Source: Candidatus Poseidoniales archaeon
Lineage (GTDB): Archaea; Thermoplasmatota; Poseidoniia; Poseidoniales; Thalassarchaeaceae
Length of the DNA stretch: 43,282 nt
Direction: 5' to 3'
Assembly: GCA_028821675.1 (NCBI GenBank)
Contig: JAPKFG010000003.1
Location: 1-43,282, forward strand
Part shown: positions 14,001 to 32,657 of the stretch, piece by piece
Layout: each line of letters opens with the position of its first letter
Numbering within the stretch: the stretch's first letter is position 1
The notes under the pieces: model-generated
What the model was told of the DNA's origin: nothing
The model's input: only the letters and a program-made list of their open reading frames with translations
Database searches by the model: none
Translations under genes and position numbers: made by a program

Positions 14001-15544
14001 ATCTTGGCTCTTCAATCGGCACTGCTTCTGGTTCAACAGGTGCCATCCCACTCAATGGTGCCCGCACCGTCGAAATGACTGTGACACCGCAACTTGGTAC
14101 TCCGCCACCTGCAGGTCAGGTCATGGAGGCAATGCTGCGCGTCACTTCTCAGATTGATCCAATGCAATCGTGGTCTTATCCGATTCAGATGGAGGTCATC
14201 GAATTCGATTCAGCCGTCATCGAGGCAGAATCAACACCTGATGTTCTCCGCCCAGATTCAATTGTTTACCTTCAATACACAATCACGAATCTAGGCAACA
14301 CAGAATTGACACTCTATCCAAACGTCGACGCTAGACCCGGAGGTTGGTCGGTTATCGCCGGCTCAAATTCAATCACTATTCCGATTGGTGAATCCGCATC
14401 CTATATGCTCGGCCTTGAAGGAAATGGTCTAGCAGTGGGGGGCTCGTTGACGCTTCATTTGACGACACAGGGTGGTTATCGAATTACTTGGGATGGAGAA
14501 TTGGATGTGGTCGAGGAAGCCAAACCTGTACTGACATTCACTGGAATTACCGATTCACTGGGTACAGCATTGTCAGAAATTCCCATCGGCACGCCGGGTT
14601 TCTTGGGGCACTGGCTGATTATCAACGATGGGAGTTCCGCTTGGACTCCAGTTCTGAGCATCGATTTACCCGATTCTACTTGGATAGGTGTTTGTGATCC
14701 GGTGTCAGAAATTGCTCCTGGTGGATCGGCTGAAGCCAATTGCATCATCACAGCGCCAAACTTTGCCATGGCAGGTTGGCAGCCGGAAATTGGCTTGACC
14801 ATCGATGCTGATGGTATAGAGCGTTCCGCAAGTGCCCTCATTTCAGTCGCGGCTGAACCCAGTGTCATATGGACAACTCTTTCAATTGAAGAATCAATGA
14901 CAGATCAATCTTCACGGTTGCATTTTGAAATATTGAATACTGGAAATACTGTCATTCAAGAGCGTGTTATAATCGAATCTCCTGAAGGATGGACCGCTGA
15001 AGTCGAAGATTCAGATATTATCGATTTGGCTATCGGTGAATCACAGGGCCTTCGAATCCGCATCGTGCCCGATACACCCGGTGAGGCTTTGGTTTCACTC
15101 AGTTTTGAAGGCTCCAATATCCACGGTTCCACCCATTCTGTAATATTGGATGTCGCCAGCGCTCCGTCTCTTGTCACAGAAGGTGGAAGTGGAACAACGA
15201 TGACAGTCGTCTTCTTGCTAATATTCATCGTGGTCGGACTTGTCGTTGCCGGTATGCTCATCGTTCGGTTGAGGAAAAATCAGGCCTCTCCAACCTTGAC
15301 TCCACCCCCGCCAACAGCATTCTCCGGTGCGCCCACTCCTAGTCAGACCAGTCAGAGTCAGAAAGCAACCACACAAGTCGTGTGTTGGGGTTGTAACAAA
15401 CCGATTTCTGGCATCCGTCGAGCTTGCCCTGGGTGCGGTGCTCGATATCATGAATCGGCGTATGGGTGCAGTGCATCCGCCTTGACCGTGTGCCGCAATT
15501 GTCAGGCAGATGTCAGTACCTTTGTTGAAGAGGTGAGTTCCTGA
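11015..15544 (+). CDS. Membrane-anchored S8 (subtilisin-like, KP-43-type) serine peptidase with CARDB/Ig-like domains and C-terminal Cys/His finger
   Basis: Triad motifs VADSG, GHGTHV, GTSMAAP; oxyanion SAGN; SSRGPTDDGRIKPD; LTWSD/NNLD/NNVE C-domain; CARDB-like IDPD...EIDEDNN; TM near the C-terminus. Signal peptide begins at ATG 11015. Confidence 0.93.
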   Translation: MRHRIVFCILGILLLSVVAPISTPPSSVSAVDEDGTSGIERIEIHLDPDSIGSAHPSASWDGEEELRETTADTHIGVFTIDGLQSDVEVPEILTTIRTDIALVLIDGDVGLWPGRVALTELPGIEIRAHIPPSGFLIQGNPQAIAAAAELSVVAAVHPLPLAFMVDYHLSDLLSEASSLSLDAHPSTAVQLSGWRLADLSTPQDHVRLPGLRGDLDQTAATYLTSYRPIDTGRHHGLLSLEDIATVAAEPALSWLSLEPIFSIDNNVAVGHMRADDVSNYFVVGLNGSGHTVTVADSGIDRDHGDFDGRIQHVESVIWGDTSTEDVHSGHGTHVACTVLGNGSKGGYAGVAPQASLRFQAMEDDDSGNFGGVSMDTLLRKAYEGNSHIHTNSWGMAGYYGEYTTSSEDTDSRTNQYDQFWSYNGMLVLISAGNDGSDPDTITPPATAKNAVTVGNHHNRGGGAPSTLSDSSSRGPTDDGRIKPDVTAPGAWVRSCLSQDATETSGSSWTSQWYLEYSGTSMAAPNAAGASVLIREYLMEVAGRPSPQGALIKGMLILGAEDTGSRDIPNMNEGWGRVNLANSLIPGTDTGIWVDDRNTVRSGQTREYQFNLSRGNTPFKAVLTWSDYPGSTWSSTQLQNNLDMVITAPDGTIYKGNDFANGRSTTGGDADDLNNVEVVLIDQADSGVWTVQITDVAHGGQRSDQPFALAVRGAGVNDLRSDPLPIPLSFELSTAIPQVNEVCQISIQIENQGGGRADDLRIEAIAGTQNLGEVTMDIGPGMIRWATWDWTPINEGTQAITIVIDPDQLEEEIDEDNNLFEIPVAVSAPGVRVTTSQTVLEIDEASQTSTSWQLEIRNTALISTNASISASTPMRINNGQMMTAWFTSFTQTSFALNGSQSSSIGFTMVHDESPPPGLYQLTITATDEDNDIDFPLTLSLDVPLLPDISFQAPFSVLQVHPSIPTMFEVDVLNGGNGLQGYNLFIESPIGWWVGLDNLGSSIGTASGSTGAIPLNGARTVEMTVTPQLGTPPPAGQVMEAMLRVTSQIDPMQSWSYPIQMEVIEFDSAVIEAESTPDVLRPDSIVYLQYTITNLGNTELTLYPNVDARPGGWSVIAGSNSITIPIGESASYMLGLEGNGLAVGGSLTLHLTTQGGYRITWDGELDVVEEAKPVLTFTGITDSLGTALSEIPIGTPGFLGHWLIINDGSSAWTPVLSIDLPDSTWIGVCDPVSEIAPGGSAEANCIITAPNFAMAGWQPEIGLTIDADGIERSASALISVAAEPSVIWTTLSIEESMTDQSSRLHFEILNTGNTVIQERVIIESPEGWTAEVEDSDIIDLAIGESQGLRIRIVPDTPGEALVSLSFEGSNIHGSTHSVILDVASAPSLVTEGGSGTTMTVVFLLIFIVVGLVVAGMLIVRLRKNQASPTLTPPPPTAFSGAPTPSQTSQSQKATTQVVCWGCNKPISGIRRACPGCGARYHESAYGCSASALTVCRNCQADVSTFVEEVSS

Positions 15545-26865: not shown

Positions 26866-28497
26866 ATGGAGATTACAGAAATGATTACATTTCTTGGCAA
26901 TCCGTTAACCGTACTCACGCTACTGCCAATCACTGGCGCACTCCTGCTGATGCTCGTTCATTGGATGGCAGATGATGAGAAGCGTGAGATGCTGGCCAAC
27001 CCGATTCGCTACGTCAATCTCGGAATCGCCCTGTTGATGTTGCTTATGGCGACCCTCATCGGCCTAGAGGAGACCTTTGGATTGGCGTGGGGAGAATACC
27101 TGTATCAGAACTGCGAAGTTGGTGCTGTGAGTACCGGTTCCTGCACTTTGATCAGCAGCATCGGAGTCTCATGGCACGTCGGTATCGATGCGCTATCATT
27201 CCCGATGGTTTGGTTGACCACACTGTTGATTCCGATTACCATGGTGGTCGAGTGGGAGGCCAAGAAAGATGGCCCCGATAGAGCCTACTTCCACAGCCTC
27301 ATCCTGATGATGGAAGGTGCGCTCATCGGTGTATTCGTCAGCCTCGATTTGTTTGTCTTCTACGTCTTCTGGGAATTGACTTTGATTCCGATGTTCTTCC
27401 TCATCTTGTTGTGGGGTGGAAGTGACCGCCGGTACGCTGCTCAGAAGTTCTTCATCTACACCTTCACGGCCAGCGTCTTCATGCTTGCAGGCATCCTTGT
27501 GATGTATTTCAACAATGATGCGAGTTGGGTTGGCAACATCACAGGGAAGTCGTTTGATTTCATTCTGATGGAAACCAGTACGAACTTCATCGCTTCTGAG
27601 GGATTACGAAGCGTTGTTTTCCTATTGATGCTAATTGGATTTGCAACCAAAATGCCGAGCGTACCCGTTCACACTTGGTTGCCTGACGCCCACGTCGAGG
27701 CCCCCACTGCAGGCTCGATGTTACTGGCTGGTGTCATGCTAAAGATGGGTGCATATGGTTTCCTTCGCCTCGGAGTGACGCTCTTCCCCGATCAGGTCAT
27801 CCAATTCCAGACACTGCTGCTCGTTCTCGGTATGGTCAGCCTCGTCTATGGCGCCGTTGTCTGCCTAGGGCAGATTAATCTCAAGCGCATGGTCGCTTAC
27901 TCTTCAGTGAGCCATATGGGTCTCATTTTCCTCGGTGTGGCTACACTTCAGCCACTTGGAATCGCCGGCGCCATCTTCATGATGTTCGCTCACGGAATCA
28001 TCAGCCCCCTCTTGTTCGCAGTTTGTGGTTCATTCAAGCATCATTATCACACGCTGGAAATTGATTCCATGCGTGGTCTGGCCCATAGCAGTCCGTGGAT
28101 GAGCGCCCACATGATGGTTGGATGGATGGGCAGCCTCGGTCTGCCCCTGATGGCTGGCTTCGTTGCTGAGGTTGCAATCCTCATCGCCTTCTACATGACC
28201 TTCGGTTGGTGGGTTGTTCTACCCGCTCTAACACTCATCATCACCGCGGCTTACTACCTGTGGAGTATGCAGCGCACAATCTTCGAAGGTGGTGGCGATG
28301 TTCAACTTCCACCGACGATGCGTGATGAAGAGCCTCGTGACATTACATGGCACGAGAACACTGGCATGCTCATTTTGGGCGCTCTCGCTGTAATCTACGG
28401 CATTTATCCAGACTTCTTCGGTATGTTCGAGATGATGTCCAATTGGGCTTCTCTATTGGTCGAGAACGTCATTTACCCACCTGAGGTGAATCCATGA
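26866..28497 (+). CDS. nuoM: Complex I-like antiporter subunit M
   Basis: FYVFWELTLIPMFFLI, K.P..P.HTWLPDAHVEAPTAGSMLLAGVMLKMG.YG, LKRMVAYSSVSHMG. Confidence 0.97.
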   Translation: MEITEMITFLGNPLTVLTLLPITGALLLMLVHWMADDEKREMLANPIRYVNLGIALLMLLMATLIGLEETFGLAWGEYLYQNCEVGAVSTGSCTLISSIGVSWHVGIDALSFPMVWLTTLLIPITMVVEWEAKKDGPDRAYFHSLILMMEGALIGVFVSLDLFVFYVFWELTLIPMFFLILLWGGSDRRYAAQKFFIYTFTASVFMLAGILVMYFNNDASWVGNITGKSFDFILMETSTNFIASEGLRSVVFLLMLIGFATKMPSVPVHTWLPDAHVEAPTAGSMLLAGVMLKMGAYGFLRLGVTLFPDQVIQFQTLLLVLGMVSLVYGAVVCLGQINLKRMVAYSSVSHMGLIFLGVATLQPLGIAGAIFMMFAHGIISPLLFAVCGSFKHHYHTLEIDSMRGLAHSSPWMSAHMMVGWMGSLGLPLMAGFVAEVAILIAFYMTFGWWVVLPALTLIITAAYYLWSMQRTIFEGGGDVQLPPTMRDEEPRDITWHENTGMLILGALAVIYGIYPDFFGMFEMMSNWASLLVENVIYPPEVNP

Positions 28498-30327: not shown

Positions 30328-30933
30328 ATGGGACGACGTCGAGAGGAAACAGTCGATGAGGAGTTGCTGGCGCAGCTTGAAGGCGACTCCAGCGACAAAA
30401 TCAGAGTCCCACTTCCCAAAGAAAGAATCAACGAAATGTTCGCCATTGCCGACCAGATTTTGGGCGGTCGAAGGGTCCGGGTCATCTGCGCGGATGGCGA
30501 GACTCGTTTGGCTCGAATTCCCGGCAAGATGCGACGACGCCAATGGGTGCGTGAAGGTGATTTAATCGTCGTCCAGCCTTGGGATTTCCAAGATGCTAAA
30601 GCCGATGTGAAGAAGCGTTACACTAAGACTCAATCTCTCTATCTGTCCCGGAAAGGAGTCCTGCCTGAAGTTGTAGACGTATTTGGCAGTGGAACCGATA
30701 CTTGGGATGATCTTGACGATGCGGGTATTTTCGGTGGAGGCGATGATGTTGAAACCGAGGCTGCCCCTGTTGAAGAAAAGATCGTGGCTGTCGAAGAAGA
30801 GGACAAAGCCGAAGAAACCACTGAAGAAGAACCCGTTGCGGACGAACCTGAACCTGCACCGGCGGCTGAACCAGAGCCAGATGACGTAACCGACGACGAC
30901 GACGACATCGACAGCCTGTTCGGTCCAGCATAG
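30328..30933 (+). CDS. eif1a: Translation initiation factor aIF-1A with ~80-aa acidic C-terminal tail
   Basis: LGG.RVRV.C.DG.TRLARIPGKMRRRQWVREGD.IVVQPWDFQ..KADV..RY OB-fold signature. Confidence 0.96.
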   Translation: MGRRREETVDEELLAQLEGDSSDKIRVPLPKERINEMFAIADQILGGRRVRVICADGETRLARIPGKMRRRQWVREGDLIVVQPWDFQDAKADVKKRYTKTQSLYLSRKGVLPEVVDVFGSGTDTWDDLDDAGIFGGGDDVETEAAPVEEKIVAVEEEDKAEETTEEEPVADEPEPAPAAEPEPDDVTDDDDDIDSLFGPA

Positions 30934-30944
30934 GAGGTGTAAGC

Positions 30945-31934
30945 ATCGCCCGACGCCGGAAGGCTCGTCGCGAAGGCGACTCTCGAGATTGGACCGAATT
31001 GGGAGATTCTGAGAATGTCGATCTCGATGCGGACCCCACGGAAGTAGAACTTTCGATTGAGGCCGAGAATATCGCCCTCGCAGAAGAAAAATGGGATGCC
31101 GCTGAGGCTGAGATGGACCTCCATTCTGAAATGGACAAGAAACAGGATTCTTGGTCATGGATGAATGAGAAGAAATACGCCAAGATATTCAAAGAGATTG
31201 AGCACCGATTAGAGGGCGTTCTTGGTAAGGGTAAGTTTGAGTGGGCCGATCGTCGTGTTTTCGATCAAGTTTTCGATCAGCGCACACTTCTTGCCATCTA
31301 CAAACTCATGCAACAGGGACATATCGACACTATCGATTGGCCAATTGCTCGGGGCAAAGAGGCCCATGTATTCCATGCGACGACACTCAATGGTGTGGCT
31401 GCGGTGAAGATTTTTCACACCAGTAATGCTGTGTTCAAAGGGCTCATGCAATACATTGAGGGGGATCCAAGATTCGGTGGTTTGCGCCGCCGTCATCACG
31501 AACTGGTCAACGTATGGGTCAGGAAAGAATACCGTAATTTGATGCGGATGTCCAAGCATGGATTGCGTGTTCCAGAACCACATGCCATCTTCCGAAATGT
31601 CTTGGTCATGGATTATCTCGGAGAATCAGAAGGACCAAGCCCTCGACTCCGCGATGTCGAGGTTGAGGATGCCGCACCCATCTTCGATGAATTGTTGAAT
31701 TGGTTGAGAGTATGTTGGCAGGAAGCTGAACTTGTTCATGCTGATTTCAGTGAATACAACATCCTTTGGCATCAGGGTGAGCCCCGAATCATCGATGTCG
31801 GTCAGGCGGTCACGAAAGGTCACCCAAATGCCGAGGATTTCCTCGTTCGTGATGTTACTCGATTGGTTGAATGGGCACAAAGACAAGGTGTCGATGTTGA
31901 TGTGGCCGAGGCCATGGCCAACGTACTATACTGA
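30945..31934 (+). CDS. rio1: RIO1 kinase/ATPase (small-subunit maturation); probable ATC start at 30945, first standard start TTG 30999
   Basis: VFD.RT...IYKL, GKEA.VF, AVKIF, YI.GDPRF, W..KE.RNL, LVHADFSEYNIL, IIDVGQAV...HP.A..FL.RD. Start inferred from SD spacing (see findings). Confidence 0.93.
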   Translation: MARRRKARREGDSRDWTELGDSENVDLDADPTEVELSIEAENIALAEEKWDAAEAEMDLHSEMDKKQDSWSWMNEKKYAKIFKEIEHRLEGVLGKGKFEWADRRVFDQVFDQRTLLAIYKLMQQGHIDTIDWPIARGKEAHVFHATTLNGVAAVKIFHTSNAVFKGLMQYIEGDPRFGGLRRRHHELVNVWVRKEYRNLMRMSKHGLRVPEPHAIFRNVLVMDYLGESEGPSPRLRDVEVEDAAPIFDELLNWLRVCWQEAELVHADFSEYNILWHQGEPRIIDVGQAVTKGHPNAEDFLVRDVTRLVEWAQRQGVDVDVAEAMANVLY

Positions 31935-32657
31935 TCATTCTTCTTCGTATCCAATCGATTCGTCTTCAGCGAGTTCCATCATATCCTCGACTGCTTCATC
32001 ATCCTCTGGATTGACTTGCGCATCTTTGTATCGACGTTCTCTCTTGCGTCGAGCCGCATCAAGTCCAGGTACTAGCACCTCAAATCGATCGCCATCATCT
32101 CGAGTACCGATGGATTCCAAATTACGCGAGGACATACGTTTCTTGCGACGTTGGGTTTCAAGATGCTTCAGAACAGACGAATGCTCGGCACCCTGCAACA
32201 ATCTCTCAATCGCTTGACCGGCCAATGGTAACGCCTCTTCGTCGCCGATAATCACAACGGTCGAACCATAGATTGCGATTTCTGCACCCGAATGCTCTTC
32301 AATCAATTCTCGAATTCTCCCATTACGTCCAATCAATCGACTTCGGATTCGTCTTTGCTGGTTCGGACTCTTTCCGACATACTCTCGCATATCATAGAGC
32401 CTGAGGTGTTGATCGTCCTTGAGCAACTCTAGAGCACGTTCCGGATTCATCCCCCTTCCGATGGCACGAATGACATCAGGGAGTTTCATGCGCAGAATCG
32501 GGTCAAATTCCTCATCCCATACCACGGATACATCGCCACTGCTTGAATCGATGTGGAGTGATGATTTAGTGGCCTTTTCAAGCGCTCGACGCGTGGCGCC
32601 CTTACGTCCAATCAATACCGCAATGCGGTCTTGGGGAATTCGGGCGAGGCCTTCCAT
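31935..32657 (-). CDS. pno1: KH-domain pre-rRNA processing protein Dim2/Pno1 (Krr1 family)
   Basis: RIP.DRIAVLIGRKG.TR, IRAIGRG.NPE.A..L, R.RLIGRNG..R..IE, G..H.SV. Confidence 0.92.
   Translation of the reverse strand: MEGLARIPQDRIAVLIGRKGATRRALEKATKSSLHIDSSSGDVSVVWDEEFDPILRMKLPDVIRAIGRGMNPERALELLKDDQHLRLYDMREYVGKSPNQQRRIRSRLIGRNGRIRELIEEHSGAEIAIYGSTVVIIGDEEALPLAGQAIERLLQGAEHSSVLKHLETQRRKKRMSSRNLESIGTRDDGDRFEVLVPGLDAARRKRERRYKDAQVNPEDDEAVEDMMELAEDESIGYEEE

Follow-up and report, generated by a model that had tools for sequence, protein, structure and literature searches.

An ATC codon directly behind the aIF1A stop is very probably the conserved start of rio1 in related genera of Candidatus Poseidoniales

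The window analysed here is a stretch of 43,282 nt from a Candidatus Poseidoniales archaeon, and it includes, on the same strand, the gene of the initiation factor aIF1A closely followed by rio1, the gene of a kinase that acts in ribosome maturation (Table 1). The product of the first gene matches the Pfam family eIF-1a (PF01176, E 2.5e-20, residues 35-96). The product of the second matches RIO1 (PF01163, E 3.9e-52, residues 142-320) with 177 bits over a family cut-off of 22, which places it among the RIO-type kinases. The junction between both genes, TAGGAGGTGTAAGCATC (30931-30947), comprises the aIF1A stop codon, a Shine-Dalgarno sequence (SD), a spacer and an ATC triplet. A first-pass annotation of this DNA had proposed, from the letters alone, that rio1 initiates at the ATC, and its description of the junction proved accurate: the aIF1A stop is part of a strong SD, the ATC lies in the rio1 frame 18 codons before the TTG, and the latter has no comparable SD. 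In fact, no SD was found in the 20 nt preceding this TTG (ACTCTCGAGATTGGACCGAA). In the rio1 frame of the window, the upstream in-frame stop is situated 21 codons before the ATC, and no ATG, GTG or TTG occurs from that stop to the TTG; later in-frame ATGs are found at 31113, 31131 and 31161. The spacing between SD and ATC equals that of three ATG-led genes in the window, all of them present as the annotation had described (GAGGTGAATCCATG, 28483-96; GGGGTGATATCATG, 10255-68; GAGGTGGAATCATG, 40003-16).

Table 1. Features of the aIF1A-rio1 junction, in window coordinates.
Feature	Position	Strand	Remarks
aIF1A gene	30328..30933	+	upstream cistron; begins with ATG and encodes 201 aa with a long acidic tail at the C-terminus
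aIF1A stop codon TAG	30931..30933	+	third base doubles as first G of the SD
Shine-Dalgarno GGAGGTG	30933..30939	+	5 nt upstream of the ATC
Proposed rio1 start codon ATC	30945..30947	+	in the rio1 frame; conserved across relatives
Codons 2-18, ARRRKARREGDSRDWTE	30948..30998	+	conserved basic N-terminal segment; implies initiation no later than 30948
TTG, first canonical in-frame start	30999..31001	+	18 codons after the ATC; rejected as start
rio1 coding sequence as re-read	30945..31934	+	329 codons plus stop

Across all 1.6 Mb of the genome, long open reading frames preceded by an SD hexamer in exactly this register begin with ATG in 48 cases, with TTG in eight and with GTG in four, and with ATC only at rio1. 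The rio1 ATC is therefore served by a ribosome-binding site at canonical spacing, namely the register common to the 48 ATG starts. The universal 16S 3' motif, sought to confirm the anti-SD, had no match in the assembly, and thus the SD consensus rests on the genome-wide register. Since the rio1 ATC is the sole ATC in that register and is also conserved in relatives, the SD-ATC pattern goes beyond what chance would give.

The comparison with relatives comprised 27 aIF1A-rio1 junctions from four related genera (24 genomes of g1, plus g8, g6 and g3). The codon at the rio1 start position is ATC in 25 of the 27, ATA in one (L018) and ATG in another (L019), while ATT was found at none of 25 loci. 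The aligned junctions continue with a conserved ARRRK N-terminus, as the first-pass annotation had anticipated. No ATG, GTG or TTG occurs from the upstream in-frame stop to the ATC in 26/27 junctions; the exception, L022, has an in-frame ATG two codons 5' of the ATC, separated from GGAGG by only 2 nt; this ATG could be the start of that particular rio1. The first canonical start is situated at codon 18, 19, 22, 26, 29, 62 or 64, depending on the relative. The distance from the aIF1A stop to the start is 11 nt in 13 and 12 nt in eight of 26 junctions (range 9-24), and entropy is low at positions -13 to -8 (0-0.86 bits, 25 loci); the SD match is weak or absent in four of the 26 (L016 and L017, GGGGGGAT; L018; L019). 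Throughout the order, aIF1A precedes rio1 in nearly all the junctions read, with a 936-nt gap in G035, and in most of the order the pair is kept with ATG or TTG on rio1. Metagenome contigs were also scanned with a degenerate 23-mer, a poorly specific search that reached at least 120 loci and gives no frequencies. Among the matches listed, six passed the filter and five were real junctions, four with ATC and one with ATA, the latter replicating L018.

The residues following the ATC ([A/G]RRRKARR...) are conserved, and their changes are mostly at the third codon position. Entropy over codons 2-18 amounts to 0.27, 0.16 and 1.07 bits at the first, second and third positions (25 loci), and with the window as reference the same codons hold 107 synonymous versus 55 non-synonymous codon differences (25 loci). 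The start column itself needs two changes on the tree, whereas at six invariant Ile columns inside the same 26 genes the number is 3-7 per column, and every one of these columns mixes ATT and ATC. Judged from these alignments, the constraint acts on the codon ATC, third base included, rather than on the residue Ile.

Several explanations would deprive the ATC of its role as a start. The mundane one, put forward in the first-pass annotation itself, is an assembly error or a private G>C mutation of an ATG; no support was found for it, its probability is next to negligible, and it is refuted by the 26 other species genomes together with a contig from another study. The codon reads ATC in 24 further species-level genomes and, among the metagenome matches listed, in four contigs. 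Furthermore, two DNA runs of separate studies (X1 and X10) gave contigs with ATC, no read variant was found at 30947 in either run, and an assembly error is excluded by the contig of the second study. It is also very improbable that Rio1 begins at TTG 30999 or at a later ATG, with 30945-30998 untranslated and conserved for some other reason. Gene finders accept only ATG, GTG and TTG and would accordingly call TTG 30999, and, in view of shorter archaeal Rio1 proteins, the core of an archaeal Rio1 could begin near 31161. However, codon-periodic substitutions and amino acid conservation begin right after the ATC, the TTG lacks an SD and its counterpart in L005 is TTA, and in L009, L020 and L023 the first canonical start shifts to codon 62-64 with the N-terminal peptide still conserved; the frame upstream of the Rio1 core is open in all 60 genomes with a match. 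An aIF1A-Rio1 fusion made by stop read-through or frameshifting, in which the ATC would be an internal Ile codon, could draw on the 10 of 26 junctions where the upstream in-frame stop is the aIF1A stop itself, three to eight codons before the ATC. Nonetheless, aIF1A and rio1 are in different frames in 16 of the 26 junctions, and all three stop codons are used (TAG in 13, TGA in 10 and TAA in three of the 26 relatives' junctions); since both the frame relation and the stop codon vary, a fusion is extremely improbable. In addition, the junction alignment shows unconserved spacer codons next to a conserved SD, and ATT never replaces ATC, unlike at internal Ile codons. The comparative evidence indicates that the ATC at 30945-47 is very probably the rio1 start codon, beside the aIF1A stop and SD as originally proposed; non-standard starts of this type are rare but have been described before.

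The start position is canonical in some relatives, with ATG in L019 and ATG or TTG in the sister family f3. In this family, 20 of 22 junctions begin with ATG (ATG-GCN and the like; MAKDNWDEL, MARSGDDWDEL), one has TTG and one is ambiguous, and the family's Met-Ala aligns with the Ile-Ala of ATC-type rio1. In a tree of Rio1 itself, all 26 ATC-type rows group together as a single clade, with moderate support (SH-aLRT 84). An ancestral ATG probably changed to ATC once, in the common ancestor of the four genera, and the ATC has been retained since.

A hairpin occluding the SD was sought at the junction and not found (MFE -32.2 versus -35.2 for shuffled sequences, z +0.92). The contigs of RNA run X16 span 30605-30930, 30986-31136 and 31196-31400, leaving 30931-30985 uncovered. 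A special initiator tRNA reading AUC was considered and rejected: the 37 tRNAs found in the genome, which is 91% complete, comprise one ordinary initiator-type tRNA (CAU) and one elongator-type Ile tRNA (GAU), but none of initiator type that carries GAU. Loss of aIF1 as the cause of relaxed starts is ruled out as well, because the gene is present (SUI1, 70.9 bits) with an ATG start.

Near-cognate starts are not restricted to rio1, as two unrelated genes of the same genus have conserved CTG starts. The gene of uL10, whose start overlaps the uL1 stop as NTGA, begins with CTG at 17 of 22 loci (ATG at three, TTG at one, GTG at one), and a radical-SAM gene, separated by 9 nt from the stop of a preceding gene for an RRM protein, does so at 14 of 20 loci (TTG at three, ATG at three). 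For all three near-cognate starts verified in the genus, the distance to an upstream stop codon on the same strand is between -4 and +11 nt. Given the CTG starts of uL10 and the radical-SAM gene, the lineage as a whole seems to accept near-cognate starts where junctions are tightly coupled and led by a strong SD. Three further candidates (ATT in C122, CTG at 15541 of the window and CTG in C60) proved false, with a plausible ATG a few codons downstream. Most CTGA matches in the scan are TGATG overlaps.

The reading that we favour, with a probability of roughly 0.7, is that rio1 is a second cistron started at AUC behind aIF1A, with an SD overlapping the aIF1A stop, a presumed reinitiation and a single origin of the ATC. 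The SD GGAGGUG would position the small subunit with AUC in its P site, using the register of the AUG genes. The usual initiator tRNA (anticodon CAU) would form pairs with A and U but not with the third base, and the first Rio1 residue would be Met. The ribosomes initiating at the AUC would mainly be those that have just terminated on aIF1A 11 nt upstream, through termination-reinitiation or SD-retained re-binding, and the weak AUC may hold Rio1 output well below that of aIF1A. Translational coupling by termination-reinitiation was reportedly described by Huber et al. in 2019 (PMC6728339) for both archaea and bacteria, with a follow-up in 2023 (PMC10666635). We infer such coupling for aIF1A and rio1, which have the common strand and the very short gap of coupled pairs. 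Like the published pairs, which lie on one strand with -4 nt overlaps or very short gaps, uL1-uL10 has its NTGA overlap, and the aIF1A-rio1 gap, 11 nt filled by the SD, is at the upper edge of the gaps coupled in reporters (PMC10666635). On the other hand, the coupled cases in the accessible text of the published work use ATG, GTG or TTG, and near-cognates are mentioned there merely as a possible source of odd overlaps.

Within an AUC start, the route of initiation may be read otherwise. It is possible, if doubtful, that the SD drives initiation de novo on a bicistronic mRNA, the proximity of the stop being a matter of genome compaction. The SD is strong and its register is that of non-coupled ATG genes, and no occluding structure would demand an unwinding ribosome. 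In reporters, coupling was poor and gene-dependent across gaps of about +10 to +20 nt: in Haloferax volcanii and Escherichia coli, reinitiation fell by 40-80% when the gap was +14 nt, so the 11-12 nt gap of rio1 may act by independent SD-driven initiation. Gaps of +10 nt were judged likelier to reflect independent initiation in E. coli, and such gaps were rare in H. volcanii (PMC10666635). However, near-cognate starts independent of the upstream cistron do not explain why three out of three lie so close to its stop, nor why 21 of 26 junctions keep a gap of 11-12 nt and a stop that touches the SD. Another proposal, distinctly unlikely, is that the AUC makes Rio1 synthesis a sensor of the initiation stringency set by aIF1A and aIF1, in a feedback similar to that of infC, which would link a factor of start selection with one of small-subunit maturation. 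The bacterial infC (IF3) has an ATT or ATA start with autoregulation, and E. coli pcnB an ATT start (PMC2830850); as in rio1, these are AUH near-cognates on translation-related genes, the weak start setting or regulating the output there. The conserved aIF1A-rio1 order and the constrained third base of the ATC are consistent with such a loop, and in vitro, aIF1 selects against non-canonical starts (PMC8211752). Nevertheless, in infC the unusual codon belongs to the gene that encodes the start-proofreading factor itself, while here it is on rio1, and both aIF1A and aIF1 begin at ATG; moreover, most of the order has an ATG or TTG rio1 in the same gene pair. The CTG starts of uL10 and the radical-SAM gene share the architecture, and this lineage-wide tolerance weakens a rio1-specific feedback, as the ATC can be explained without a rio1-specific sensor. 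No link between aIF1A and Rio1 in archaea was found in the literature searched. A broader version, which we regard as unlikely, holds that terminating ribosomes tethered by the SD restart without aIF1/aIF1A proofreading; the lack of this check would have allowed AUC (rio1) and CUG (uL10, radical-SAM) to be fixed and tuned, the rio1 AUC acting as an infC-like control. If true, the AUC would tie Rio1 synthesis to the flux of initiation as well as to its stringency, and rio1 would be the archaeal counterpart of infC-type control.

The proposed ATC start of rio1 finds a parallel in Deinococcus, where N-terminal proteomics established the starts of dnaA (ATC) and rpsL (CTG) (Baudet et al. 2009, PMC2830850). 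In both systems conserved ATC or CTG starts are found on housekeeping genes, are kept among relatives and were missed by gene finders, and the N-terminus turns out conserved once the non-canonical start is accepted. The Deinococcus cases are, however, bacterial and have proteomic proof, whereas rio1 belongs to an archaeon with aIF1/aIF1A/aIF2 machinery and is known from comparison; furthermore, unlike the Deinococcus cases in the accessible text of that study, all three cases described here are directly behind the stop of the upstream gene. A hint of archaeal initiation at near-cognate codons comes from ribosome profiling of H. volcanii, where these codons make up around 30% of the putative alternative sites (Gelsinger et al. 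2020, PMC7261190), although in the available portion of that paper they are set aside as possible false positives and are untied to conserved genes. Among the literature matches listed, ATC/AUC start codons were mitochondrial, eukaryotic and bacterial only. No description of conserved near-cognate starts in archaea was found in the literature searched, while they are documented in bacteria.

As a consequence of the ATG/GTG/TTG limit of gene finders, at least 18 conserved Rio1 residues are cut, and uL10 and the radical-SAM enzyme would lose whole N-terminal domains in annotation; such mis-annotation is to be expected in every genome of this abundant marine group. Start-codon choice in archaea relies on eukaryote-like factors, and the three natural, conserved cases would be substrates for testing how strict archaeal initiation and reinitiation are. 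The same cases bear on whether a weak start determines how much a cistron yields relative to its neighbour.

In the window, rio1, the RIO-domain gene following aIF1A, is probably translated from an ATC codon, a reading strongly supported by comparative evidence (probability about 0.85-0.9). The first-pass annotation had proposed this start, and what it reported of the junction (the frame of the ATC, its Shine-Dalgarno sequence (SD) and the 18-codon distance to a TTG devoid of a comparable SD) is correct throughout; its three comparison sites, in which an SD and four bases precede ATG, are present at 28483, 10255 and 40003. Upstream of the ATC, the in-frame stop lies 21 codons back, with no ATG, GTG or TTG in between.

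Features of the aIF1A-rio1 junction (window coordinates) and of two further near-cognate starts (L, locus; G000, genome of the window; C, contig)
Feature	Position	Strand	Evidence or remark
aIF1A gene	30328..30933	+	Pfam eIF-1a, E 2.5e-20
rio1, next gene after aIF1A	end 31934	+	Pfam RIO1, E 3.9e-52
aIF1A stop TAG	30931-33	+	merges into GGAGGTG
SD GGAGGTG	30933-39	+	five bases ahead of ATC
ATC, proposed rio1 start	30945-47	+	rio1 frame
TTG, first canonical start in rio1 frame	30999	+	18 codons after ATC; no SD ahead
uL10/P0 CTG start	L061:1216-1218 = G000:C43:10015-10017; relatives L063-L092	-	Pfam L10 and L10P insert
Radical-SAM enzyme CTG start	L062:1972-1974 = G000:C98:6571-6573; relatives L093-L122	-	reading and relatives

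A KH-domain gene (KH_1, KRR1 second KH domain; 31935-32657, minus strand) converges on rio1, the two stops abutting with zero spacer. The aIF1A protein carries an acidic C-terminal tail of ~100 residues (30640-30930; last residues DDDDDIDSLFGPA), which may resemble the eukaryotic tail. The C-terminus D-[IL/V]-[DE]-x-LF-[GA] recurs throughout the order. Archaeal aIF1A is described as devoid of the eukaryote-type, eIF5B-binding C-terminal extension in a review (PMC7531240).

Of the 61 genomes searched from the order, 60 contain rio1, its frame being open far upstream of the kinase core in every match (294-406 codons vs. a 257-residue query). The junction was read in 60 loci, 27 of them of the ATC type (24 genomes of g1, the genus of the window, and one genome each of the related genera g8, g6 and g3). 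The alignment across relatives suggested by the first-pass annotation gave ATC in 25 of these 27, ATA in one (L018) and ATG in one (L019), followed by a conserved [A/G/S]R[R/K][R/K] N-terminus. Among the matches listed by a metagenome scan, which number at least 120, five were usable junctions, four with ATC and one with ATA; since the latter is of the same type as L018, the ATA form is not an error. An assembly error (G>C) or private mutation, the mundane alternative considered at the outset, is excluded, as relatives carry the same codon, and two DNA runs from different studies show no variant at 30947; one of their contigs stems from a strain that differs slightly, carrying the synonymous change CGG>CGC at 30959. 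In the sister family f3, rio1 starts with ATG in 20 of 22 junctions (TTG in one, ambiguous in one), and the M-A of N-termini such as MAKDNWDEL and MARSGDDWDEL aligns with the I-A of the window's type. In family f2 and in other genera belonging to the window's family, the start is ATG or GTG and the basic segment is missing. All 26 ATC-type rows fall into a single clade of a 59-row Rio1-core tree (SH-aLRT 84; 97 for g1), and the simplest reading is that ATG became ATC once, in an ancestor shared by four genera, and that one locus type later regained ATG and another acquired ATA. The arrangement of ATC and standard-register SD at rio1 is old and maintained. Most ATC junctions have GGAGGTG(A), and the SD of L019 (genome G014) and L018 (G021) is weak, with a GAGG match only; a pair of cases does not suffice to speak of compensation.

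Over codons 1-17 after the ATC, compared in 25 loci, columns vary mostly at the third codon position (mean entropy 0.27, 0.16 and 1.07 bits for positions 1, 2 and 3). Relative to the window, 107 codon differences are synonymous and 55 non-synonymous, and the peptide ARRRKARRE..DW.EL is retained throughout. The first canonical start shifts between loci: mostly a TTG at codon 18, it falls elsewhere at codon 19, 22, 26, 29, 62, 62 or 64, and L005 has TTA in place of the window's TTG. Thus, rio1 translation begins at or before the Ala/Gly codon. No in-frame canonical start precedes the ATC position in 26 of 27 junctions, and the aIF1A stop shares the rio1 frame in 10 of 26, just 3-8 codons ahead of the ATC and separated from it by freely variable codons, so that ATC is the sole invariant near-cognate (a start codon other than ATG, GTG or TTG). 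Production of an aIF1A-Rio1 fusion by read-through or frameshift is unlikely, since the two frames differ in the other 16 junctions and the aIF1A stop itself varies (TAG 13, TGA 10, TAA 3). ATT occurs at the start position in none of 25 loci. On the tree, this column requires two changes (to ATA and to ATG), vs. 6, 7, 5, 3, 6 and 6 for six internal columns of these 26 genes in which Ile is invariant, and each of the six mixes ATT and ATC; seven near-invariant Ile columns together hold 100 ATT, 68 ATC and 4 ATA. This is an indication that ATC itself, rather than isoleucine, may be selected, to which no probability is attached because the genomes are related.

The assembly (1.6 Mb) was scanned for sites with an SD hexamer in the exact register of rio1, followed by 120 or more open codons and preceded within 25 codons by an in-frame stop, with no canonical start between. 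The codons at such sites are ATG (48), TTG (8) and GTG (4), which marks this register as a genuine start signal of the organism; the sole ATC, that of rio1, sits exactly within it. The same scan offered further near-cognate candidates, each checked by reading: three were false, with a plausible ATG a few codons downstream, and two, uL10/P0 and a radical-SAM enzyme, are upheld by relatives. One of these three, a CTG at 15541-15543 of the window, stands in perfect SD register and opens a 912-codon ORF; it is probably false, a signal-peptide-like N-terminus beginning at an ATG 17 codons downstream. The uL10/P0 N-terminus reads x-IPKAAQWKKDR, preceded by GGAGGTGAT, codon x being CTG in 17 of 22 g1 and g8 loci (ATG 3, TTG 1, GTG 1) and ATG in six of eight loci from other genera (GTG 1, TTG 1). 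For the radical-SAM enzyme (x-AWLVIDGYEDEPA), 20 readable g1 loci present CTG 14, TTG 3 and ATG 3. A stop closes this frame four codons ahead of the start, and the next canonical start in the window's genome is 123 codons downstream. At both positions CTG alternates with canonical codons from one close relative to another, as expected of an interchangeable start codon. According to the search table, a single internal stop interrupts two uL10 matches, TGA in L084 (G030:C1) and TAA in L092 (G036:C39). All three near-cognate starts come directly after the stop of a same-strand upstream gene: the aIF1A TAG 11 nt before the rio1 ATC, the TGA of uL1 (Pfam Ribosomal_L1) overlapping the uL10 start as CTGA, and the TGA of an RRM-domain (RRM/zinc-finger) protein 9 nt before the radical-SAM CTG, inside its SD. 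The genome encodes aIF1 (SUI1), with an ATG start, so loss of this factor does not explain the tolerance.

Coupling of rio1 to aIF1A and attenuation of Rio1 are plausible: ribosomes finishing aIF1A would be held by the stop-overlapping SD and resume at the AUC, using the normal initiator tRNA, the weak codon holding Rio1 output far below that of aIF1A. The initiator tRNA is ordinary (A1:U72, three G-C pairs adjoining the CAU loop), tRNA-Ile(GAU) is elongator-type, and no special tRNA for an AUC start was found in the assembly; nor was a masking hairpin at the junction, the RNA of which is no more stably folded than shuffled sequence (z +0.92). As to mechanism, though not as to the start codon, de novo initiation at AUC driven by the SD has to be taken seriously as an alternative, because in a reporter study in H. 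volcanii and E. coli coupling weakened sharply as the gap widened (by 40-80% at +14 nt), +10 nt gaps being judged more likely independent initiation (PMC10666635). The same text quotes an ATT efficiency in E. coli of ~0.3% of ATG (PMC10666635); the literature search gave no corresponding value for AUC in archaea. As for the infC-like loop proposed in the first-pass annotation, tying Rio1 output to initiation stringency, in vitro discrimination by aIF1 against non-canonical starts is reported (PMC8211752), so any near-cognate start would in principle be sensitive to factor levels. The feedback is nevertheless unsupported, and three findings speak against a device specific to rio1: the odd start lies outside the fidelity-factor genes, the same gene pair has ATG in most of the order, and unrelated genes use CTG in the same architecture. 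No literature linking Rio1 with aIF1A in archaea was found.

Conserved near-cognate starts as such are already known, and the rio1 ATC would be a further case. Classical examples are infC and pcnB, with ATT/ATA starts, and in Deinococcus housekeeping genes have conserved starts (ATC in dnaA, CTG in rpsL) shown by N-terminal proteomics (PMC2830850); rio1 and uL10 have the same two codons, the rio1 start being supported comparatively. Ribosome profiling of H. volcanii placed ~30% of the putative alternative sites of initiation at near-cognate codons, and these were set aside (PMC7261190). Beyond this trace, our literature search, thin for subscription journals and thus no proof of absence, found no conserved near-cognate start in archaea, and none of the matches listed for ATC/AUC start-codon phrases was archaeal. 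The rio1 start has a practical consequence for annotation, and the rio1, uL10 and radical-SAM starts offer three naturally occurring cases in which to test how stringent start-codon choice is during archaeal (re)initiation.
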